A stretch of 64,000 bases of DNA from Giardia intestinalis (lineage: Eukaryota), in assembly GCA_000002435.2 (NCBI GenBank), contig CM018790.1; one strand, given 5' to 3'. Position 1 is the first letter of the stretch, and every line of letters starts with the position of its first letter. A model generated the notes under the pieces. The model saw only the letters and a list, made by a program, of their open reading frames with translations. It did no database searches and was not told where the DNA came from. The translations under genes were made by a program, and so were the position numbers. Shown in pieces: positions 3,001-40,932 of the stretch.

Positions 3001-6000
3001 CCCGTGCATTTTGCTGCACTATCTTGACACGTCTTGCAGCTCTTATCGCACAGCTGACAGAACTCAGCAGACTCATACATCCCATCCGGACACTTAGTAA
3101 AGCATGCAACCGTTGCAGGACTTCCATCCTTGGTTATCTGGAATGACTTAACACCCTGTTTGCACGACTTGCAGATGCCATCCTCCTTGACGGTGCAGTC
3201 ATCCGAGACCTTGCACTCCCCATCAACGGGCACCTCATCCTTCTGCTTACACTTCGCACAAAACGACCCTGCGCCCGATGTCACGACATCCTGGGCGTCG
3301 CAGATGTCCCTCGCCTCGAACGACCCCGCTTCATAGCAGCCACCCTTGTACTTGATGTATCCGTGGGCGCAGTATTTGCAGGTGCCATTAGCTTGTTCAT
3401 ATTGTATGCACACGCCTGCGGCCACTGAAGCACACACGCCGTTGACTGGGCCCTCGGCGTCAGCAGCGCACTGGGAGCAGTAGAACGTGCCCAGGACATC
3501 ACACTTGTCCTTTCTGCACCTGTGCTCCTTGGGGTCTGCCTCTGCCTCAACGCACGTTTGCACGCACTCCGTTCCCCCATTCATTGGTCTGTAGAACTGC
3601 TCGCAGGCAACACAGACCAGGAGTCCGTTGGAAACCTCGCAGCTCTTGCAGTGGGGTATGCCCTTCAGCGTGTCGCTGTTCTCTGTGCACGGAACACACG
3701 AGTCGCTGACACTTGAGCGGTCGGGGGGCGGGTAGTATCCATCCTTGCAGGTGCTGCAAATGCCGTCATGCACTCCAAGGTCTTTGCAAACCGTGTTTCC
3801 AGGAGCCCTTTCTGCCGAGACGCAGCTCCCAAGCATCAGGAAGTAGTCGCTGCTGCAATAGTAGCACGTGCCAGTGGGGACGCGGTGCAGAGTGCACACC
3901 GCAGCCTCTGTGCTGCCGGGCGTAAGGCAGTGTCCATCGACCAGAAGGTCTGTCACGACTCCGCACTGGAAGCAGTATAGCGTGTTGCCTATTAGGTTAT
4001 GCCTAACGCACGCTTTACTCCCGGGAGGCGCAGCTGGATTGTAGCACCCGCCCATGTAGAGGATGTGGGTCGTCGCACACGACGCACACGTATCATTTTG
4101 TTGTGTTTGCGGTGTGCAAACATTACTATTAGTGGAGGTACACCTTCCATCCACGAGATAATCTGACTCTAGCGAACACCTAGAACAATACTTCCCGTTG
4201 AGCACGTTGCAGTAGCCCTTCAAACACTTTCCTGTCGCCTTGCTGCTCTCCTCTACTTCTGGACAGGATTCTTCGCATCGATTCTGCTCGTTCAAGATGT
4301 ACCTATCTGCGCAGTCTGTACAGGTAGCCGGTCCTGCTGCTTTAGGAGGCAGGCATGTATCGCAGTGATCTATTCCAGTATACCCGTTGCTTCCAACTGT
4401 ATCGTTGCACGCAATGCATGAGTCTATCGCCGTGCTAGCCACCGGGTTCTTGAAGTACGATTTGCCGCACTCCTCACAGACCCCGGCCCCGACCCTGGCG
4501 CAGATATCTGAGTGTGATTCCTGCCGCATGCATATTCCCCTGTGCATAAAGTAGCCGGACCCGCATGCAGTGCACTTGCTGCTTGTGCACGTATTTCCGT
4601 CAAGTTCTGCTGTGCATGACCCATCGACAGGGTACTCGCCCGCATCATTACACGCTTTGCAATAGGCAGTGCCCTTTTCTACTATCTGACTATCTTGTTT
4701 GCAGATCTCGATCACTGGCTGGGTAATCTTATAGCACCCGCCGTAGTATAGCAGGTGGGTTGCGGCGCAGCGAAGGCATGTTCCCGAAGAGGCATTCAGA
4801 CATATGCGGGCCCGTTCTCCTCCCAACGAGCAAACTCCATCTATGGGGACCTCGTTTGCCTCGCTGCATCTGCTGCAAAAGGTGTTGTCTCGAACCGTGC
4901 ATCCTCCGTAGATACACTTCCCTGGGCCGATGCCCTCCTCACAGACTTTTTCGCAGACCTTCGACCCCTTTGTGTTGTCCTTGAGGAAGTATCCCGAGTT
5001 GCAGCTGGTGCAGGAGGCTGCATCTCCGGAACAGGCCCGGCAGTTGCTAACCTCGCAGACCTTGCATCCGTTGCCCGATGACATGTATCCATCTTCGCAC
5101 TTGGAACAGGTGCTGGTGCTGTCGTCTTCATCTTTGCAGATAAGCATGCCAGGCATGACACCCTTTCGGTAGCATCCCCCGTTGTATAGAAAGTACCCCG
5201 ATGCGCAGGATGTGCAGGCGCCATCTTGTGCACTGTGCCCATCTAGGGTGGCTGTGCATATGCCGTCAACAGGACATTCTGCAGATGTGGCGCACCTTGA
5301 ACAATAAGTGTTGGAAATGGTATTGCAGTGTCCCGTTTTGCACTGTTCCGCCCCCTCAGCCCCTTCATGACAAACCTGCACACAGCTGTTGCCCTTGAGG
5401 ACATGCCCAGTGGTGCACTTTGTGCAGATAGGCATGGTCCCGCTGGGCTTGGGGCTGCACCTCTCGCAATTTGCGACCCCTACGATTGTGATAGTGGCCA
5501 CCGGATCGTTGCAGGGCTTGCAGTAGCCGCGCCCCCCGCTGAAAACCTCAAAGTAGACATCCTTTTTGCAGGACAGGCAGCTGTCGGCAGCACCGCTACT
5601 GCATGTTTCACAGGACTGGTGGCATGGTGCGCACGTGCTGCCACTGCGGTAGTACTTGTTCCTGCACACTTTGCAGCCACCCGTGCCGTCCAGCTCGTCG
5701 CATATGACGTTCCCGGGCGACGTCTCGTTTGAGTAGCAGCCGCCTTTGTAGAGGAAGGCTTTCGCTCCACAGCTTGCACATGTCGTGTCCGTGGGTGTGA
5801 CCGCAGAGCCCCGGGACGTCACACAGCCCACTGCTGCCACCTCTTGCGCGTCGTACCTCAAACAGACCCCTGAGACAGGCACGAAGCCCGGCTGCGCACA
5901 TCGGACACAGACCGTACGCTCCTGGACCTCGGAGGTCTCTGCGCACACCTCCTGCCCCAGAGGTTCTGCTACGCTATAGCAGCCTCCCTGAAAGAGCAAA

Positions 6001-21003: not shown

Positions 21004-22008
21004 ATGCACCTACGGACTTGTCTTACGGCTGGAACCACTGTTCTCGAGAATCTGCGTGGGAAGAATAGTATCCTGCTGAGCACAAGCAATGGAGTGGCTT
21101 TGTTGGGAGACGGCGTATCATTGTTTGAAGCCAGCTGGGATCCAGATGGGCGAAGGGATATTCGTCTCACACGCATGCCTGTAGCAGAGCACTATGGCAT
21201 GTCCAATGGCGTGGCAACACTTGTGCCAACACTACGTGTGGAGGTGGTCTCCATAGAGGACAACAAGTTGTCTCCGCTTCAATTGCTTCAGAACCTTTCG
21301 GAAGCGCCATTAGCAGAGACAGAAACTATCCAGATCATAGATAGCGAGTCTGACGTTGCTGGAGAGAACCGTTTCACTGTGGTGGTCACCGGGCCACCCA
21401 TCCTTCCCGTTCTTGGATGCGTCCTGCAGCACAAGAAGAACTTGTGGATAGCTCTTTACAGAAAAGGCTTTCATTGCCTTCACTTGTTTCGTTATTCCAA
21501 GTGTGAAGCATCCAAGAGTCAGGGTGAGAGTGGACTTGCACTGGTTCCTTTTGACCCTTCTACCTTGACGCTCCCAGCACCTATACACGGCTTGGCGCCA
21601 CTGCACAATTTTGGCGCCTTTATTATTGCTACGTGTGAGAGATCGTCATCAACACTCTATATGAAGCCCAACACATCCTTTGAGGTGAACATTCATAGCT
21701 GTCTTCTCCCAAATGGTGACGCAGACAAGGAATTGGCACCAAAAAAAGTCTCAAGCACAACTCTCTCGACCTGCGAAAGTATCGCTGCTGACCATGCACA
21801 CCAAGCATTCTCACTGATCACACAATTTGCTACGGATCCCAATCTTTCTGCCCAGGAAAAGACCTCTTTAATTACAGCAATGTCTAGTGTTTATGACTCA
21901 GCGTTGAGGGCTGCCTGTGCTGGCAGACAAGTCCTGGACGCCCAGTTAAAATGTTATCCAGAGAACTTTGGTTCAACGCCATTAGAAGGCACGACTATGC
22001 CTTTGTAA
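21004..22008 (+). CDS. Hypothetical protein (334 aa)
   Basis: A long ATG-initiated ORF. Its last 58 nt overlap, in another frame, the start of the downstream ankyrin-repeat gene. Confidence 0.6.
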   Translation: MHLRTCLTAGTTVLENLRGKNSILLSTSNGVALLGDGVSLFEASWDPDGRRDIRLTRMPVAEHYGMSNGVATLVPTLRVEVVSIEDNKLSPLQLLQNLSEAPLAETETIQIIDSESDVAGENRFTVVVTGPPILPVLGCVLQHKKNLWIALYRKGFHCLHLFRYSKCEASKSQGESGLALVPFDPSTLTLPAPIHGLAPLHNFGAFIIATCERSSSTLYMKPNTSFEVNIHSCLLPNGDADKELAPKKVSSTTLSTCESIAADHAHQAFSLITQFATDPNLSAQEKTSLITAMSSVYDSALRAACAGRQVLDAQLKCYPENFGSTPLEGTTMPL

Positions 22009-23654
22009 ACGCTAATTTAGATAAGTTCAAGCGTGTTCGTGATGATCTAGGCTTTACAGGGCTTATGTACGCTGCTTGGACAAATGACATGGAGATGGTG
22101 AGACTGCTTGCAGATGACGAGCTCAACCTTAGCAACGGCCAGGGAAACACTGCTACTATAATTGCAGCCCTTAATGGGAGCGTTGATGCCTGTCAGTATC
22201 TTCTAACGCGAGAAACTATTGGGCTCAATGAGTTTGGGCACACGCCTCTCACATTAGCTGCAGCCGAGGGAGTCACGGCTACGATACCTGTGCTCCTTCC
22301 TTACTACGGAACCATGAAGGATGCAAACGGCTGGACGCCTCTGGATCACGCCGCAAGTAACGGACACATAGATGCAGTCAAGCTTCTCATTGCCGATCTT
22401 TCCCCACGCATTCTCTCCTTGGATTCAGCTATAGAGCATGCCATGCTTTCGGGAAACAAGCATGTTGTGGAGCTTCTAGCGCTTTGCAAAGACACTGTAA
22501 CTAGTTCTCCTTGCATTACATGTAACTACTATCGAACTCTTTGGGTCTCACAACTATCTGCTCCAACCTCTCGTAAAGATGAAGAAAAAGCACCCTTGGG
22601 AGACCAACCGTCTGGTCATGGACCGTTGCATACAGAGTGCCTCGATATATCTCTAGCAAGGATGGAGTGGAGCCACGTTTCTCAGATATGTAGCGAAAGG
22701 TTAGCAAGTGTCCGCAGCACTCGTAAAGGTCTAGCTACCCTCGACCGATACCTCTCTGCTCTACTTGCCCTTTGGGGCTCTTCTGGGCCCGAAGCCCCAC
22801 TCTACCAACCAGACTCTTCCCTTCACGGCATAACGCCCTTGATGGTAGCAGCATCCAGTGGACGTGCAGATCTAGTAGAAACTCTCATTACCGAATATCT
22901 AGGTAAGAGGAATAGCCAAGGGCTGACGGCTCTCATGATAGCTGCCCGGAGAGGGCATCTAGACTGCGTGAAGTTGCTCGTTCCAGAGGCAAAAAAGGTA
23001 GACATTGACGGCTATACCGCTCTCATGCATGCTGTCATGGCAAACGCAATGAGTGTGGTTGACTATCTTGCTGATTATGAATGTGGCATTCGCTGTCCTG
23101 ATGGAAACACGGCATTGCTGCTTGCAGCAAAGTTAGGTCACCCCAGAGTTCCTCCGTCACTGATTAAAGCAGAGGCAAAGATAAAAGATACTGATGGTAA
23201 CGTTGCCCTCATATACGCTGCTTTAGATAGAAACAAGCCGTTGATATCTCTGCTCTGTGAAGCAGAAGCAGGCATCTCTAACTATATGGGGCTCACAGCG
23301 CTCATGGCAGCTGCATATACAAACGATTGCGATACAATATTGTTGACTCTGTCGACTGGGAAGAAAAAAAGGATGCATGGAGGATTTACTGCCCTGATGA
23401 TTGCTGCCTGTCTTAACAACAGAGAGGCAGTCGAAGCCCTCGTAGGCCACGAGGCATTCTGTGTTACGGACACTCACTTTAGCGCTCTATTACTGGCCGT
23501 TGTATGCGGTTCGGTGGACGCGTCCAGGACTCTTGGACTTGTTGAGATGACCATACTGTCTCCTCATGGTCACAACGCGGTGACGCTTAGCGCTAACGGT
23601 CCATGTGGCTCTATAATATCGGATATATGTGATGGGATCAAGAACTCTGCTTAA
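21951..23654 (+). CDS. Ankyrin-repeat protein of the Giardia 'Protein 21.1' type (567 aa)
   Basis: Multiple 33-residue ankyrin repeats (G-TALM-AA--GH---V--L). The N-terminus (MLSRELWFNAIRRHDYAFV) parallels that of the other ankyrin protein in the window (MTSREEWFQAIHSREYSVV). The next in-frame Met would truncate the first repeat, so the 21951 start and the 58-nt overlap with the upstream ORF look real. Confidence 0.85.
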   Translation: MLSRELWFNAIRRHDYAFVNANLDKFKRVRDDLGFTGLMYAAWTNDMEMVRLLADDELNLSNGQGNTATIIAALNGSVDACQYLLTRETIGLNEFGHTPLTLAAAEGVTATIPVLLPYYGTMKDANGWTPLDHAASNGHIDAVKLLIADLSPRILSLDSAIEHAMLSGNKHVVELLALCKDTVTSSPCITCNYYRTLWVSQLSAPTSRKDEEKAPLGDQPSGHGPLHTECLDISLARMEWSHVSQICSERLASVRSTRKGLATLDRYLSALLALWGSSGPEAPLYQPDSSLHGITPLMVAASSGRADLVETLITEYLGKRNSQGLTALMIAARRGHLDCVKLLVPEAKKVDIDGYTALMHAVMANAMSVVDYLADYECGIRCPDGNTALLLAAKLGHPRVPPSLIKAEAKIKDTDGNVALIYAALDRNKPLISLLCEAEAGISNYMGLTALMAAAYTNDCDTILLTLSTGKKKRMHGGFTALMIAACLNNREAVEALVGHEAFCVTDTHFSALLLAVVCGSVDASRTLGLVEMTILSPHGHNAVTLSANGPCGSIISDICDGIKNSA

Positions 23655-24600
23655 AGAGACTGCGAACCAATTTTTTCTTCTCCGCTGGGTCAATTGGGTG
23701 CCTGGCGTCTTCATACCCACCGGGTGGTATGCGACTACTATATTGTGGCGAGTCTCCATGAAAATCGGATCCCATTGAGGCGGTCAGGCCATGCCTGTCA
23801 CAGTACTGCTTCAAGTGGAGGATGTTCTTCTGGGTATGGCTAGGGTGATAAACCTCAAGATGCTTCATTCCGCTTTGAACAGCCTCCTCAAGGACCTTGA
23901 CGGTAGCATCCCAATCATACTTAAGACAAGCATGAGCAAGGACAGGGACTCCTCCCAGCTGAATTGCTCTTGTAATAGCGTACCGAAGAGGAAGCATTTC
24001 CTTTTTAAGTGATTCTATCGGCTCTTTTGCCAGATATTTATCAAATGACTCTCTTACCGTTGTGCAGTAGCCCTTGTGAATTAGGTAATTTGCAATGTGT
24101 GGTCTCCCAATGGTCCCGTCTGCTGTACTGGTCTTTTGGTTTATCCTATTGAGGGTGCAAAACTCGTCCCACGAGAGATCAAGGCCGTAGGTTGATGAGA
24201 GAACTTCGAGGCAAAGCTTTGCTCTTTCAATCCTTTTCTCGCGCAATAGAGATAGTTCTGTTTCTAGTTCCTTGAGGCCTGCAATGTCAGCCATGGTAGG
24301 GGGGTCTTGCTTGGTTAGGGAGAGGCGCTTGAAGGCCCTTTCGGTTCCCATTGCAAATCGCGGGAAATAAACGAGCAAGTGGGACTCTTTGCCGAGGAGG
24401 TTCTCCGTGGTGATCTCGACTCCGGGAAGGAAGACTAGGTCTGGAAGATTGAGGGCCTCGAGGCGGAAGTACGCCTGCAGTGTGTCGTGGTCTGTGAGCG
24501 CGCAAAGGGCCGTATCGTTGGAGTATGCCATCTCGAGAACGGTCTCCGGAGGGTGCTCCCCGTCGGAGAGCTGCGTGTGCATGTGCAGGTCGATATGCAT
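23638..24600 (-). CDS. PHP-domain metal-dependent phosphoesterase, TrpH/YciV-like (320 aa)
   Basis: N-terminal MHIDLHMHTQLSDGEHPPETVLEMAYSNDTALCALTDHDT carries the PHP signature (H-x-H ... D-G ... TDHD). Further His/Asp motifs follow (HLLVYF, RPHIANYL, GGVPVLAH, SDFHG). True ATG at complement(24598..24600). Its 3' end overlaps the ankyrin gene's 3' end by 17 nt. Confidence 0.8.
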   Translation of the reverse strand: MHIDLHMHTQLSDGEHPPETVLEMAYSNDTALCALTDHDTLQAYFRLEALNLPDLVFLPGVEITTENLLGKESHLLVYFPRFAMGTERAFKRLSLTKQDPPTMADIAGLKELETELSLLREKRIERAKLCLEVLSSTYGLDLSWDEFCTLNRINQKTSTADGTIGRPHIANYLIHKGYCTTVRESFDKYLAKEPIESLKKEMLPLRYAITRAIQLGGVPVLAHACLKYDWDATVKVLEEAVQSGMKHLEVYHPSHTQKNILHLKQYCDRHGLTASMGSDFHGDSPQYSSRIPPGGYEDARHPIDPAEKKKLVRSLFKQSS

Positions 24601-24663
24601 TTAAACGCCTGCAGACTATCCATATAAATATAATGCGCATCCTGTAGACTGGCCCGCGTCCAG

Positions 24664-24736
24664 GGTTTCATAGTGTAGTTGGTTAGCACATGGGACTCTG
24701 AATCCCATAACCCCGGTTCGAATCCGGGTGAAACCG
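24664..24736 (+). tRNA. tRNA-Gln(CUG): tRNA-Gln (anticodon CUG), 73 nt, nuclear type, no encoded CCA
   Basis: Cloverleaf read directly from sequence. Acceptor stem GGTTTCA/TGAAACC; D arm with A-box TAGTGTAGTTGGTTAG; anticodon stem TGGGA/TCCCA with loop CTCTGAA (anticodon CTG); T arm CCCGG-TTCGAAT-CCGGG (B-box GGTTCGAATCC); discriminator G. A T4 Pol III terminator follows immediately (24738..24741). Closely similar to eukaryotic tRNA-Gln-CTG. Confidence 0.9.
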
Positions 24737-24752
24737 CTTTTCCCCGGCGAAA

Positions 24753-25139
24753 ATGGGGGGTGCGACGCGCAAGAAGAACAAGACGAACCACCGCGAAGTC
24801 AGCCGCAGGGTGAAGACCAAGCGCCGCACAAAGGACGTCGACGAGATCCTCGAGATGCTCAGCCCGGAGAACGTGGAGAAGATCAAGAACAGGGACCCCG
24901 ACCCCCTGCTCCCCGGGGACGGCATGCACTTCTGCATCATCTGCGACAGGTACTTCATCAGTGCAGAGGCGCTGGAGACACACAAGGCCACCGGGAAGCA
25001 CAAGTTCCAGGTCAAGCGCGTCAGGGAAGGCGGCATCTCCCCCAAGGAGACAGAGCTCTTTGCCCGCCGCGGGCTTCCCGATAACGGGCGGAAGATTGTA
25101 AGAGATGAGAACGGTGAGCTGATAGGATTTACTGATTGA
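24753..25139 (+). CDS. ZNF593: ZNF593/Bud20-family C2H2 zinc-finger protein (pre-60S ribosome biogenesis/export factor), 128 aa
   Basis: Basic N-terminus, then DVDEILEMLSP and DPLLPGDGMHFCIICDRYFISAEALETHKATGKHKFQVKRV. These match the ZNF593/Bud20 blocks ([52 protein letters not shown]). ATG at 24753 is 16 nt after the tRNA. Confidence 0.85.
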   Translation: MGGATRKKNKTNHREVSRRVKTKRRTKDVDEILEMLSPENVEKIKNRDPDPLLPGDGMHFCIICDRYFISAEALETHKATGKHKFQVKRVREGGISPKETELFARRGLPDNGRKIVRDENGELIGFTD

Positions 25140-26031
25140 GCTGTGCCCTCAGCTCTGTCTCGTACTGTTTGTAGTATTTCCTATACCTCTCCACTGTTGT
25201 CGAGTATGGAATTTTCCCACAAGAGCAAGCGTATTCAACAAAGTCGTCCGCGTGCTTCGTAAAGGAGTTCATAATGCACGATGAGTAAATCACGAAAATG
25301 GAGACCTCTGCAGCTGTTATCAGGTAAAGAGGGATGGGAGTGGCGAAGTATGCTGCAAACTCTACGTCGTGAACCGTTTTTATCTGCCTATCGAGGTCGT
25401 CCTGTGAAAAGACAAGGGGGGACTGCTCTTTTTCTAGAAAGTTACAATACGTCTTGAGCATGCAGAGAGACAGCCCAACGGCAATGTCGCGGTAGAGATC
25501 GAGCTTCGTTGCTGCAATGAACTGCCGCTCCATTTGTTGAAACTCGGCATGAACTCGATCCTCCTTCTTGATCTGGAGCGTCAGGCCATAGCACTCTAAA
25601 ACATGACCAACATCTCTGAAGCCAAAGAAGCGCGCCATCAGTGAGGAGTCCTTGAGACGCGCTATGCTATTTGCTTTGTACATCTGATGGAAGGTGGCTA
25701 TACGCGTGTGTATGACTTCTAGACTGTCGATAGTGACGTTGAGGGTCCGCAGCGTGTGGATAGCAACGATGATAGCTACCTGTCCCCTGACCTTCGTATC
25801 ACTGAGGAACTGGTCCCTCATGTGCTTCTTGCTTTCTGAGTTGTGATCGTCAATGTAGAAGAAGCGGCGGAGAAGCGTTGCAGAGCGCATGGTGGACTCT
25901 CGTGTGAGAGTAGTGAAAAGGTGAAAGGGTCCCTCGAAGAGGGCCTTGATTGCATAGCACGTGTTGATAAGAAGCTCGTCATCTTTGATAGTGATAACTG
26001 GCGGTATGCGGTGGTTTATCTGGGAAATCAT
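25129..26031 (-). CDS. Hypothetical protein (301 aa); possible cyclin-like fold (weak)
   Basis: The track ORF extends to 26292, but its first 87 codons read through a GGTAT/GTAGT microsatellite and low-complexity sequence. The first plausible ATG is at complement(26029..26031) (MISQINHRIPP...). Segments such as TMRSATLLRRFFY and MRDQFL...VAIIVAIHTLRTL are reminiscent of a cyclin box, but this is not compelling. The 3' end overlaps the Bud20-like gene by 11 nt. Confidence 0.5.
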   Translation of the reverse strand: MISQINHRIPPVITIKDDELLINTCYAIKALFEGPFHLFTTLTRESTMRSATLLRRFFYIDDHNSESKKHMRDQFLSDTKVRGQVAIIVAIHTLRTLNVTIDSLEVIHTRIATFHQMYKANSIARLKDSSLMARFFGFRDVGHVLECYGLTLQIKKEDRVHAEFQQMERQFIAATKLDLYRDIAVGLSLCMLKTYCNFLEKEQSPLVFSQDDLDRQIKTVHDVEFAAYFATPIPLYLITAAEVSIFVIYSSCIMNSFTKHADDFVEYACSCGKIPYSTTVERYRKYYKQYETELRAQLNQ

Positions 26032-26096
26032 GTTGGACAGGCCGCAAAGGGCAGCGCCAAAAATCTCGTGCTCGGTGATCACCCAATTCTGTTGAT

Positions 26097-26150
26097 GTAT
26101 GGTATGGTATGGTAGGGTAGTGTATAGTAGTGTAGTGTAGTGTATAGTAT
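26097..26150. repeat. Short microsatellite-like tract (GGTAT / GTAGT units) in a divergent intergenic region
   Basis: Direct read: gtatggtatggtatggtagggtagtgtatagtagtgtagtgtagtgtatagtat. Confidence 0.6.
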
Positions 26151-26196
26151 TAATTATGCATCCAATTGTACATCTCTTTTTAAAGACTCTTTGGGG

Positions 26197-29100
26197 ATGG
26201 AAGACCAGTGTGTACAGGACAAGATTTTTCAGTTGATGAGCCTGGGGGCTACCAGCTTGCCAGAGAGCTTTCCTCTGTTTCCATACATTCAAAAGACGCT
26301 TTTGATGATGACGCGGCCTTGCGTGAAATCTTGTGCTTCAGTGACCGGGTGCAACCCTCTGGAAGCTGGAGAAGCTGGATCTCTCATTGCCCTGTGCGTT
26401 GAGATCCTTCTAAGCCGCGACTCATCTCTATCGTTGCTCCAGATTGCAAGTGATGTCCTTTTACTGACCTTTCAAGCCTCACCCAAAGAGGACATGTCAC
26501 GAGGGATTATATCTCTTACTGGAGCAATTCTCAACAGGAGGCTCAAGATTTCTACCACGCGACTTGTTCTCTCTCTATTCCACACCATAATTCGGAACGG
26601 TATGCACAAAAATCTATTTACCAATACAAGCACACAGGGCCTCGCAGACGAATTTTCATTTGAGATGATTAACCTTTGTATATTAGCTAAATTGGCCATG
26701 ACCGACGGACACCTCGATACAGGGATAGTAATCTACAATGAGGATCTTGAAGCCAGCGGAGTACATATGCACACACTTGTCTTCTTTGCTAGCTTTTTAA
26801 TGATCTACCTGATACCTGGCTCTGAGCTTTCGCGTACGCCGTTCTATGTATCCCTGACCAAAGGCTTTCCAGCATGGATTCCGAAGCACTTCTTGGATGG
26901 TTTTGAGTGTGTGTCTGTGTTAGAATTGCTTAGAGCAACCTTGTGCTTCTTTAAACAGCGCCTGTCTGAATTCAAAACATTCTTGACTGAGCAACCAAGG
27001 TTTGTCGGAGAGTTTGTCACTCTAGCCACTTCACTTACTTGCTCCTCTCGTGAAGCATATCAAGTATTGCGTCAAATAGTAGTAGATATCATTATAGTGC
27101 TCATTGAGATCGTCGAAGAAGCAGAAGACTTAACTTCTCTTATCTGTGTTACTCTATTTCATTGTCTCAATTCTCTAATTGTTTTACCACTGTTTTCTAA
27201 GAGTGTTATTTTTGCCAATCTAGACTGTCCCATCATCCCAAAGGCTATTGGCCACCTGGTACTCAGTGACGCTTATAGCTGTTTAGACGAAGACATAGCA
27301 ATGGAGCTCAGAAGACAGAAAGAAAGCCTGGTGAAGGAGATGAGTTCCGGATCATCAAGAGCCGAAAGAGGGAGCAAGATAGCAGTAGAGCGCGCATACT
27401 TTTGTCTTTGGTCCCTTCTGCGTGTTATTACCGGAGAAAAATACCGGCTATACCCTGTGTACTTGATAAAGCTGACGTACTTACCGTCCACATCCTTGCT
27501 TCTCTACTATCTCCTGAACGTACTAACAAATCTTGCCAGTGCTAATAGTCAAGATATATCTGGTCTTGCCCTTAATTGTATGATTAATCTGTATATGCAC
27601 TGTCTTGGCGTGCTCGTGCAGGCCTCCAGCATGACTTGTGCTTCAGCAACTATATTCCGGCCACAGCCACCGAGCTCTATACTGTCTATTCAATCTAACA
27701 TAGTCGAGCGGTTGGATTTTCTTGGAAAGGTGAGAGGAATAGGGTCCTCCATTCTATCTTGTGGCAAGACCATTAGAGATGCCAAGCCCGATGCCATCCT
27801 ATCGGTACTCTCAGAATGCCTAGCTGATAGCTCTACTTCTCCTACTTCCAGGGCCCCAGCTGAACTGATTGCCATCCTCCCTCTTCTTGCTGGAGTTGTG
27901 CATCCATCAGTACCCTTTTTGTTACTCTTCTCCAAGAAAGGATCAGCAGTCCTAGACTCTACAATTTCTCAAGATGACTATTTCTATCACGTTCTTAGTG
28001 GCGAAACGATCCACCCGGATATGGACGAGCTTGATCTATTCCGCCTCTGCTTTAGGAATTTCCTTTTGAGCGGCGAAGGACAGGAGATCGAGCGTGCTAT
28101 GATCTCCATTTCCAATGATGTTGCGCGTGTCATTGGTGAGCTTCCCAGTGACCACAAGATCCGACTCATTGGGCACGCACCATCTTTGCGCATCTTATTG
28201 GGGTCTATAGTGGTGTTGACGACAGAGTGCTTGTCTGAAAAGATAGCTCTCAGTTCTAAAATGACCATGTCAAGATTTGTATCCATTTTGATGGGATCTT
28301 CACAGATCAAGGAGTATCTATCTGGAAACTATCAATTGTCGGAACAAACTAAAGGACAGCCTATCCCCTTACACGAGGATCTCGTTTCTAAGTTCTCTTC
28401 CATGTATCAACGAATTAGAAACGCTCCTCTGGCAGTTGACAGAACTATTTATGATGTACTATCCTTACCAACAGGAATAGCCTTGCCATCGTCAACATGT
28501 ATTAAGCTAGCTGAAAAAGCAAGCACTAGGACGAAAGATGCACTTGGTCCAAATGAGAGCGGGCAGCCAAGATTTGTTAATGTATTCAAAGATTGGTGCA
28601 CATCATCTTCTATGCTTCCTGGGACCATGGACCAATTGATTAGCATGACTGTTCATCAAACCTGCTTGCATATGCGGACTATGGAACAGCTGAAAAGCAT
28701 TCTTGGCCAGCAAAGAAGTAGATTACTGGATGGCGTCGAGACCGATAGTATTTCATTGATGGAATATTACTTTCATATCTATCTCTTGGTGCAGGCCGCA
28801 CTAACGCACTTTGTCTCCGGCGCATTGGCTGGTACAATAGGCTCTGGGGGCCTGGCTCTTTCAGTCGATTACTCATCAGGCCTTTACGCTGCATGTCATG
28901 CTGTCCATACCTACTCTCTCAAGATGCTAGCTCCGCTCTCCAAGTCATCTACATCCAGCAGCGCAGTGATGTCAAGCCTGATAGAACGCGAACTAATCTC
29001 CTCTTCGTATCTCTCTCGGTACTTTGCTGATCAGTGTGAGTACTTGCGTCTTTCTGAGTACATGTCTGCGTCATCTCCAAACGCGTGGATTAAGCTTAGC

Positions 29101-40152: not shown

Positions 40153-40932
40153 CTAGAGATACACGGAATTGTATATTATCGTGACCATACGACGATGACT
40201 GTCTATTATCACGAAACACCTGTTACTGGGATGCAGGTCAAAGTCACGCTGCCTCGGAAATAGATCTGCGGATCCTACTTCAATAATGCGATAGGCGTGT
40301 ATGTGAGAAAGGGTCAGCGAGTCCTCTTCACAGACACGCAAGGGATGCACATGTAGCCTGTACAGATCGGTGCTCAGTTTGATGTAGTTCATTACGTCAA
40401 CTGATTGTTGGTTTAGAGCGCCTCCAGCACGTAAGATCGAGAAGAGTGCACACAGCAACTCACTTCTCCATTCAGGGGTAAATAGTTGGTACAGCTCAGA
40501 GTCCACGTCAAAGAGAGCCTCGTCTATTTCATAGGATACATCCATGTCCAAACGCTGTAATTTGTGGGGAGTGCGGCCCTTGAAGCTGCTTCCAGAAACA
40601 AACCGATGACTAATCGCAGGCAACAGAGCACTTGTGTCAACCTTAGTGACATGCATGACCTCATAGCGTAAGCGATCTGACTCCGGTGAAGGCAAGGGAA
40701 GCGTCTGCATTCCCGAAATATCTGGCAAAAGAAATGCCTCACGAACAGAAGCATCGGCGAAGAAATCACTTAGAAATGTGTCAGCATTGGATGGATGGTA
40801 CTGCTTTGAAAATGCAAATTGAGCAGATTTAAAGCTGTGGTCAAGCCCCCACTGTTGCAACAGGTCGTGTGCATCTCTATCAAGGCCATCAATGCCTCGA
40901 AATGATGAGAGATGCGAAAAGGAAAATGACAT
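40153..40932 (-). CDS. Hypothetical protein (259 aa); possible CFAP300 (C11orf70)-like ciliary protein (weak)
   Basis: True ATG at complement(40930..40932). The N-terminus MSFSFSHLSSFRGIDGLDRDAHDLLQQWGL recalls the FxF...L...LL.KWG(M/L) start of CFAP300 proteins (about 260-270 aa). This is from memory only. Confidence 0.5.
   Translation of the reverse strand: MSFSFSHLSSFRGIDGLDRDAHDLLQQWGLDHSFKSAQFAFSKQYHPSNADTFLSDFFADASVREAFLLPDISGMQTLPLPSPESDRLRYEVMHVTKVDTSALLPAISHRFVSGSSFKGRTPHKLQRLDMDVSYEIDEALFDVDSELYQLFTPEWRSELLCALFSILRAGGALNQQSVDVMNYIKLSTDLYRLHVHPLRVCEEDSLTLSHIHAYRIIEVGSADLFPRQRDFDLHPSNRCFVIIDSHRRMVTIIYNSVYL

Follow-up and report, generated by a model that had tools for sequence, protein, structure and literature searches.

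We analysed a 64,000-nt stretch of the Giardia intestinalis genome (GenBank assembly GCA_000002435.2, contig CM018790.1), referred to below as the window, which carries a gene for a phosphoesterase of the PHP superfamily. The gene, GL50803_8929, lies at 23638..24600 on the minus strand, runs from an ATG start to a TGA stop, and encodes a 320-residue protein that matches XP_001708223.1 / KAE8302072.1 of Giardia intestinalis WB (ATCC 50803), assemblage A, at 100% identity. Its identifier is taken from PMC7641422, the paper on the G. muris genome, which tabulates orthologues, and XP_001708223.1 is publicly annotated as 'Metal-dependent phosphoesterases, putative'. The gene and its superfamily label are already public; the refinement presented here is a specific subgroup and a testable activity. 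No mention of GL50803_8929, or of a Giardia 'metal-dependent phosphoesterase', was found in the literature searched.

At its 3′ end the PHP gene converges on a plus-strand ankyrin gene (21951-23654, 567 residues), recognised as an open reading frame (ORF) and by domain search, and the coding ends of the two genes overlap by 17 nt (23638..23654). On the other side, a divergent spacer of 63 nt (24601..24663) separates the PHP start codon from a nuclear tRNA-Gln(CTG) gene on the plus strand (24664..24737), detected by ARAGORN and by Rfam RF00005 at 70.4 bits and followed by a TTTT terminator. Fifteen nucleotides past the 3′ end of the tRNA lies the ATG of a Bud20-like zinc-finger gene (zf-C2H2_jaz; 24753-25139, plus strand). 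The spacer contains an AT-rich block, ATTATATTTATATGG, and a TTTAA immediately 5′ of the PHP ATG, elements that resemble Giardia initiator-type promoters and may act as such. Because Giardia genes commonly overlap at their 3′ ends and have short bidirectional promoter regions (PMC3610916), the architecture of the locus is not special, and both the overlap and the short divergent spacer are normal for this compact genome. An earlier reading of the window from its letters alone, the original prediction, had named the ORF, the tRNA-Gln gene, the 63-nt distance, the 17-nt overlap and the PHP motifs, and all are present where it placed them. It had also described the surrounding genes as eukaryotic. 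Domain searches bore this out: besides the nuclear tRNA, the neighbours in the window encode the ankyrin protein, the Bud20-like zf-C2H2_jaz protein, V-ATPase subunit C, NEK-type kinases with ankyrin repeats, CFAP300 and an MFS transporter.

The family of the protein was examined by profile, sequence and structure comparison. The Pfam PHP profile PF02811 narrowly missed its threshold, with 24.7 bits against a gathering cut-off of 26.4 and a match confined to residues 4-44; database entries identical or nearly identical to the protein carry PF02811 in their precomputed Pfam annotation. Among NCBIfam models, the top two were NF041577 (3′,5′-nucleoside bisphosphate phosphatase; 1.2e-32, 113.2 bits) and RNase RNM, NF047791 (2.9e-28, 98.9 bits), followed by a weaker match, at 5.2e-15, to NF041661, a cyclic phosphate dihydrolase. 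For each of the nine diplomonad sequences tested, NF041577 ranked first and RNase RNM second, and none came near the NF041577 cut-off. The equivalog cut-offs stand at 400 bits for NF041577 and 375 bits for NF047791, and since the scores fall far under both, the exact substrate cannot be transferred from either curated family. A sequence search of the PDB matched 9etk (RNase AM of V. cholerae), 2yb1 (Cv1693), 3e0f (BAD_1165) and 7ug9 (RNase AM of E. coli).

We built an AlphaFold2 model on a 45-sequence alignment, which reached a predicted local distance difference test score (pLDDT) of 92.6 and a predicted template-modelling score (pTM) of 0.90. In a Foldseek search of the PDB, the top five matches were the proteins of 3e0f, 9etk, 2yb1 and 7ug9, with template-modelling (TM) scores of 0.72-0.79 (target-normalised); the PHP domains of the polymerases Pol III alpha and PolC came next, and the PHP matches had a probability of 1.00. 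The modelled fold is a distorted (β/α)7 PHP barrel, predicted to hold a trinuclear metal centre, with a helical insertion domain formed by helices 103-138, 144-150, 166-176 and 182-190. The structural alignment to 3e0f, 9etk and 2yb1 runs over the full length. The protein begins right at the catalytic strand, with no N-terminal extension, and therefore has no targeting peptide.

Across the 45-sequence alignment, eight of the metal ligands (H6, H8, D13, H38, E62, H223, D279 and H281) show no variation and the ninth, H74, is conserved to at least 90%; they align to the ligands of 9etk, 2yb1 and 3e0f. All the codons given here lie on the minus strand, and the RNase AM ligands used for comparison are those listed in PMC9410882. 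The first cluster, H6-x-H8...D13 (24562..24585), corresponds to H13/H15/D20 of RNase AM. It is followed by the invariant T36-D-H38-D39 (24484..24495), in which H38 would be a ligand of the third metal (RNase AM H45), by E62 (24415..24417), the carboxylate predicted from the PDB alignment to bridge the α and β metals (RNase AM E72), and by the putative β-metal ligand H74 (24379..24381; RNase AM H83). Near the C-terminus, D279-F-H281 (23758..23766) aligns to the GSDFH of 9etk, 2yb1 and 3e0f and would supply α- and γ-metal ligands (RNase AM D255/H257). Residues R123 and R126 of the helical insertion domain (24223..24234), both invariant, keep the +3 spacing of RNase AM R107/R110 and would form two of the three arginines of a 5′-phosphate pocket. 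The third would be R166 (RNase AM R141), within the invariant R166-P-H168 of a GRPH motif (24097..24105). The spacing from R166 to F186 and H223 is identical to that of R141/F161/H198 in RNase AM, and it marks the invariant F186 (24043..24045) as the predicted base-stacking residue. H223, the putative β-metal ligand, lies together with K227 at 23920..23934. In RNase AM, R201, three residues past the β-metal histidine, touches the scissile phosphate; here K227 of H223-A-C-L-K227 takes its place with a one-residue shift, a conservative replacement though not an identity, and the lysine is aligned to arginine in 9etk and 2yb1.

From the sequence matches and the model together, we assign the product to the TrpH/YciV subgroup of PHP enzymes, and class it as an equivalog of neither curated family. 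The original prediction had called a TrpH/YciV (RNase AM-like) PHP protein from an HxH, a TDHD and later His/Asp ligands. That call stands: the best sequence and fold matches are of this type, every metal ligand is present, and the motifs resolve to H6/H8/D13, T36-D-H38-D39, E62, H74, H223 and D279/H281.

To follow the homologues, we ran an exhaustive HMMER search over 1.84 billion representatives, which gave 8,049 matches at E ≤ 0.001, most of them of prokaryote length. After the G. intestinalis cluster, three matches covered the full length in a single stretch. The first is G. muris TNJ28199.1 (P0146; 39% identity, 2.4e-48). The second (P0147), from the Logan assembly SRR31929897 (locus L005), is encoded beside a protein kinase and a papain-family (cathepsin-like) protease and reads in the standard code without in-frame stops; the lack of in-frame TAA or TAG codons suggests a source in an unsampled standard-code fornicate or a relative within the Giardiinae. 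The third (P0148), from the JGI metagenome 3300010163 (locus L006), lies beside a gene for a long coiled-coil protein and is probably eukaryotic. Orthologues of GL50803_8929 occur in G. intestinalis assemblages A, B, E and others. The Giardia species have one copy; Hexamita inflata has several paralogues of 297-310 residues, at least four to six (P0151, P0293, P0296, P0297, P0190 and P0391; locus L045, 6001-6924). The check for orthologues that the original prediction had proposed thus found them in other G. intestinalis assemblages and in G. muris, and also in Hexamita. All other close relatives to which a name or the gene context gives a label come from bacteria or archaea, with labels available for part of the 150 best matches, and the nearest bacterial protein is about 35% identical to GL50803_8929.

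Further eukaryotic candidates were rejected. P0188, P0238, P0267, P0222 and P0163 are bacterial by context or by operon-like gene spacing, and P0284 (KAK3584271.1), from the freshwater mussel Potamilus streckersoni, is a response-regulator fusion that most likely reflects bacterial contamination of that assembly. A word-indexed search did not list G. muris and missed P0146-P0148, although these were in the query profile; when run with the clade-specific middle region alone it returned nothing, not even Giardia. Because known members were missed, its blanks say nothing about absence from Spironucleus, Trepomonas or Kipferlia. A scan of GTDB genomes with one narrow peptide pattern gave 35 loci (Treponema, Bathyarchaeia and others), a set biased by the pattern and not made up of the closest relatives. 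Two automatic gene calls are wrong: P0003 (356 residues; L004, 2060-3130) carries a 36-codon N-terminal extension through the tRNA-Gln gene, and in P0006 (349 residues) the N-terminal third is unrelated, as would fit a frameshift in its assembly.

For the origin of the gene, we computed an unrooted neighbour-joining (NJ) distance tree of 182 sequences and 271 columns, in which columns with more than 30% gaps, and with them the clade-specific insertions, were dropped. The diplomonad clade sits among bacteria in this tree, which has backbone branches of about zero and no root. Its most frequent sister is P0222, which in its Gram-negative source bacterium is encoded next to BamA and OmpH, and the nearest labelled taxa, Bacillota, Methanobacteriota, Nitrospirota and Spirochaetota, lie at near-equal distances; no donor lineage is singled out among the 182 sequences. 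Within the part of the match list that carries labels, eukaryotic matches are narrow (Giardia species, G. muris, Hexamita, P0147 and probably P0148), and prokaryotic matches number in the thousands. This narrow eukaryotic and broad prokaryotic distribution, together with the lack of affinity to the archaeal host lineage, favours an ancient transfer. Most likely, a single gene passed from a prokaryote into the diplomonad stem lineage before the Giardiinae/Hexamitinae split and was then inherited vertically, with direction and timing being what we infer from distribution and tree. Of the two origins that the original prediction had weighed, a lateral transfer and an unfamiliar eukaryotic PHP relative, the former is the better supported: the only eukaryotic homologues found are diplomonad-type and form one clade with shared insertions, and the other labelled relatives are prokaryotic. 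In the phylogeny it had called for, the clade falls among bacteria, on a near-zero backbone with no root and no donor singled out.

Vertical inheritance with massive loss in other eukaryotes would be a rather unlikely alternative. Archaea also have the family, among them an Asgard metagenome-assembled genome and Bathyarchaeia, an unrooted tree with near-zero backbone does not prove nesting within bacteria, and the sampling of eukaryotes outside the diplomonads is incomplete. Such a history would demand many independent losses, and among the roughly 8,000 matches only diplomonad-type eukaryotes were found near the query. Nor do the archaea lie close: when the 171 sequences are ordered by distance, the Asgard one comes 110th and those of Bathyarchaeia and Crenarchaeota come last, and the most frequent sister is a Gram-negative bacterium.

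Characterised members of the family act as pAp (3′,5′-ADP) phosphatases and as 5′→3′ exonucleases on short 5′-phosphorylated RNAs, including diribonucleotides, and also remove FAD caps and trim rRNA 5′ ends (PMC9410882, PMC11528712, PMC7261194). By analogy with them, the Giardia enzyme probably combines pAp phosphatase with 5′→3′ nano/diribonuclease activity. In the mechanism we propose, a cytosolic enzyme would use three divalent cations, of the Mn2+ or Fe2+ type as in Cv1693 and RNase AM, to activate water. The α site would be formed by H6, H8, E62 and D279, the β site by E62, H74 and H223, and the γ site by D13, H38 and H281. The pocket of R123, R126 and R166, between the barrel and the insertion domain, would hold the 5′-phosphate of a nucleotide, with F186 stacking on its base, and the phosphoester at the 3′-oxygen of the clamped nucleotide would be hydrolysed. 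Two reactions are expected: conversion of pAp to AMP and Pi, and 5′→3′ removal of mononucleotides from 5′-monophosphorylated di- and oligoribonucleotides. In the cell, the enzyme might stop pAp from inhibiting the two XRN exonucleases of Giardia, complete RNA turnover, or do both. Giardia has two XRN-family exonuclease genes (PMC3282835), and pAp is an inhibitor of XRN enzymes (PMC8268124), which makes a pAp-clearing role plausible; a role in the terminal steps of RNA turnover appears equally plausible. Substrate and physiological role are in both cases what we infer from the characterised relatives.

The same fold could also support other chemistry, with a phosphoribosyl cyclic phosphate, histidinol phosphate or a sugar phosphate as substrate, or with an exonuclease that processes DNA ends. 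Scores under both equivalog cut-offs and the NF041661 match would fit such an enzyme, and K227, together with the two insertions specific to the clade, could give the substrate groove a different shape. We consider this unlikely: the arginine triad and the stacking phenylalanine that define nucleotide 5′-phosphate recognition in Cv1693 and RNase AM are invariant, and the best family and structure matches are consistently pAp phosphatases and RNase AM proteins. If the product is indeed an enzyme of the pAp/nanoRNA type, a further step would be non-orthologous displacement, in which it would be the only pAp phosphatase and/or diribonuclease of diplomonads, replacing Hal2/BPNT1 of the inositol-monophosphatase family and REXO2/Orn. 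We hold this as a tentative and rather doubtful extension. In the part of the G. muris/G. intestinalis orthologue table examined, no canonical pAp phosphatase, oligoribonuclease, inositol-monophosphatase-type nucleotidase or sulfotransferase is annotated, a weak hint given that it is based on annotation. Were displacement true, the enzyme would be essential both to XRN activity and to the completion of RNA turnover; it would also be parasite-specific, with no human counterpart. As the sole means by which Giardia removes pAp or diribonucleotides, it would offer a drug target of bacterial type that the host lacks; otherwise it would be an ordinary domesticated gene.

Next to its shared residues, the diplomonad clade is marked by two insertions. 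Insertion 1 (residues 80-93; 24322..24363, minus strand) follows directly on the HLLVYF strand and carries a P-x-x-x-x-G motif. It is at least 10 residues long in all 11 diplomonad-type sequences, with P80 in 11 and G85 in 10 of them, and its columns are occupied in about 1% of the 171 prokaryotic sequences. Insertion 2 (residues 150-157; 24130..24153, minus strand) measures 6-8 residues and is likewise common to all 11, P0147 and P0148 included, with an occupancy of 0.97 in diplomonad-type sequences vs 0.04 in prokaryotes. F147 and T159 are further signature residues common to the diplomonad-type sequences. On a clade profile, Hexamita paralogues that were outside the profile scored 345-361 bits, and any prokaryote at most 208 bits. 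The 11 sequences formed one group in 133 and 128 of 200 NJ bootstraps, that is, in 64-67%. Since the bootstraps, the two shared insertions, the signature residues and the profile scores agree, a single origin of the gene before the Giardiinae/Hexamitinae split appears well supported. The alternative, that Giardiinae and Hexamitinae each gained a TrpH-type gene in two or more transfers and that the clade is a long-branch artefact, can draw on the modest bootstrap, on a Giardia-Hexamita distance (1.40) equal to that between Giardia and the nearest bacterium, and on one Hexamita sequence (Hex_190) whose position in the tree is unstable. It would have to explain insertions at the same positions, with their P...G motif, in 11 of 11 sequences and in about 1-4% of prokaryotes, the shared P80, G85, F147 and T159, and Hexamita paralogues that far outscore any prokaryote on a profile containing Giardia; we regard it as very unlikely.

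The gene has the properties of a resident of its host genomes. Its G+C content at third codon positions (GC3) is 0.561, vs 0.488 ± 0.047 with a maximum of 0.611 for 18 long ORFs of the window. A compositional anomaly, which would be a sign of recent transfer, was therefore rejected, and the comparison of GC3 with neighbouring genes that the original prediction had suggested turned up nothing unusual. In a comparison of WB with a second G. intestinalis lineage (locus L004), the ratio of nonsynonymous to synonymous substitution rates (dN/dS) of the PHP gene is 0.067, at a dS of about 1.9; the corresponding ratios for its neighbours are 0.075 (ankyrin gene) and 0.045 (Bud20-like gene). L004 keeps the gene order, the 17-nt overlap (3114-3130) and a 63-nt spacer with similar AT-rich elements 5′ of the ATG. 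In G. muris, the orthologue resides on a 2.4-Mb chromosome, where it adjoins CFAP300, with an NDR kinase and a DEAD-box helicase nearby. The Hexamita PHP gene examined has 13 internal in-frame TAA/TAG codons, which are read as Gln in the annotated protein, and it has therefore long resided in a genome with the hexamitin variant code. The PHP gene is fully domesticated and under purifying selection. Its tight integration, which the original prediction had held against contamination, is an argument that has gained strength from the synteny and overlap in L004, the G. muris locus, the Hexamita codons, GC3 and dN/dS. Bacterial contamination or misassembly of the Giardia assembly has a negligible probability, with only the bacterial affinity of the protein family in its favour and, against it, the same position and overlap in the independent L004 assembly, the occurrence of the gene in assemblages A, B, E and others, a chromosomal G. 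muris orthologue with a tRNA-Gln neighbour, a host-like GC3, an AT-rich upstream region of Giardia type, and a nearest bacterial protein only about 35% identical.

Taken jointly, these lines of evidence make it fairly likely, in our judgement, that GL50803_8929 is a functional, single-copy nuclear Giardia gene for a pAp/nanoRNA-type PHP enzyme that goes back to a single ancient transfer from a prokaryote. Several points weigh against this combined explanation. On the side of activity, both equivalog cut-offs are missed by a wide margin, K227 replaces the arginine of RNase AM, and no enzymatic or expression data for GL50803_8929 were found in the literature searched. On the side of origin, the clade bootstrap is modest, the backbone branches of the unrooted tree are near zero, Giardia is as distant from Hexamita as from the nearest bacterium, and no donor stands out. 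The survey of homologues has labels for part of the best 150 matches and includes a word-indexed search that passed over known members. GL50803_8929 is in no published list of lateral gene transfers among those searchable: it is not named in the Alsmark 2013 supplements, the G. muris transfer table or a 2024 diplomonad paper, and is absent also from a metabolic reconstruction of the last diplomonad ancestor and from two Spironucleus papers. Finally, plants may have a TrpH-like PHP protein, At2g13840, outside the eukaryotes sampled here.

Three characterised or structurally solved relatives help to place the protein. Cv1693 of Chromobacterium violaceum (2yb1), a pAp phosphatase of the NF041577 type, has a PHP barrel and a helical insertion domain like the Giardia protein, the same nine metal ligands, an arginine pocket for the 5′-phosphate and a stacking phenylalanine. 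However, the two are only about 26% identical, and the Giardia protein is about 35 residues longer, with the two clade-specific insertions, a C-terminal helix and a eukaryotic host. RNase AM (YciV/TrpH) of E. coli, V. cholerae and P. aeruginosa (7ug9, 9etk) is a 5′→3′ exoribonuclease and diribonuclease that also carries out deFADding and rRNA 5′-end trimming. Its fold and active site are alike, with H13/D20/H45/E72/H83/H198/D255/H257 equivalent to H6/D13/H38/E62/H74/H223/D279/H281 of Giardia, and R107/R110/R141/F161 to R123/R126/R166/F186. The Giardia protein differs in having K227 in place of R201 after a one-residue shift, and it scores 98.9 bits on the RNase RNM/AM family model vs a cut-off of 375; Giardia also has eukaryotic XRNs, and there is no evidence that its rRNA needs such trimming. 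The best structural match is BAD_1165 of Bifidobacterium adolescentis (3e0f/3o0f; E 7e-18, TM 0.79, target-normalised), an uncharacterised PHP phosphoesterase that is 23-26% identical to the Giardia protein and adds no functional information. GL50803_8929 adds to a known family a new eukaryotic protein, as yet uncharacterised, that has two insertions specific to its lineage and a C-terminal helix.

Gene transfers from prokaryotes to diplomonads are well documented in G. muris, G. intestinalis and Spironucleus (PMC7641422, PMC4053834, PMC1805757). The PHP gene follows the same pattern as these, a prokaryote-type enzyme with a narrow eukaryotic distribution that is fully integrated and carries host-type signals, but it would be older than most, being common to Giardia and Hexamita. 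It would add an ancient, diplomonad-wide case to the catalogue of prokaryote-derived Giardia genes, an ordinary kind of event in this lineage. A vague label, 'metal-dependent phosphoesterase', is at the same time sharpened to a testable candidate activity of the Cv1693/RNase AM type, pAp phosphatase and 5′→3′ nano/diribonuclease.

We also compared the surroundings of the gene in G. intestinalis with those in G. muris. In both species the PHP gene has a tRNA-Gln(CTG) gene next to it (L044, 5907-6003, in G. muris), in different orientations: in G. intestinalis the pair is divergent, with 63 nt in between, and in G. muris it is co-oriented, the tRNA ending about 20 nt before the PHP ATG. The remaining immediate neighbours differ, and a candidate correspondence between the 366-residue upstream neighbour in G. 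muris and the ORF at 25129-26292 of the window was rejected, as the two are not homologous. In each species a Pol III tRNA gene ends only 15-20 nt 5′ of a co-oriented ATG, that of the Bud20-like gene in G. intestinalis (24737-24755) and that of the PHP gene in G. muris (L044, 5980-6003). The Pol II promoter or initiator therefore has to share sequence with the tRNA gene or with its TTTT terminator.

Two further ORFs of the window bear on the gene order. The minus-strand ORF at 25129-26292 encodes 387 residues from a TTG or 300 residues from the first ATG and has no Pfam domain; the 300-residue version equals the listed length of GL50803_16876. The minus-strand ORF at 40153-40932 (259 residues) encodes a clear homologue of CFAP300 (cilia- and flagella-associated protein 300; 5.8e-59) and, by ORF length and domain match only, is probably GL50803_8942, which in the orthologue table carries, like its G. 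muris orthologue, only a 'hypothetical protein' label. In G. muris the order is 8929(PHP)-8942(CFAP300)-92739-16879(NEK)-61304-16876-16877(Bud20-like)-16880(MFS) (PMC7641422). By matching ORF lengths and domains, we read the window (23638-44094) as PHP-tRNA-16877-16876-61304-16879-(1871-residue ORF)-8942-16880. The genes lying between PHP and MFS run in reverse order relative to G. muris, and the orientation of the PHP gene relative to the block is also opposite, so that at least two rearrangements separate the two arrangements.

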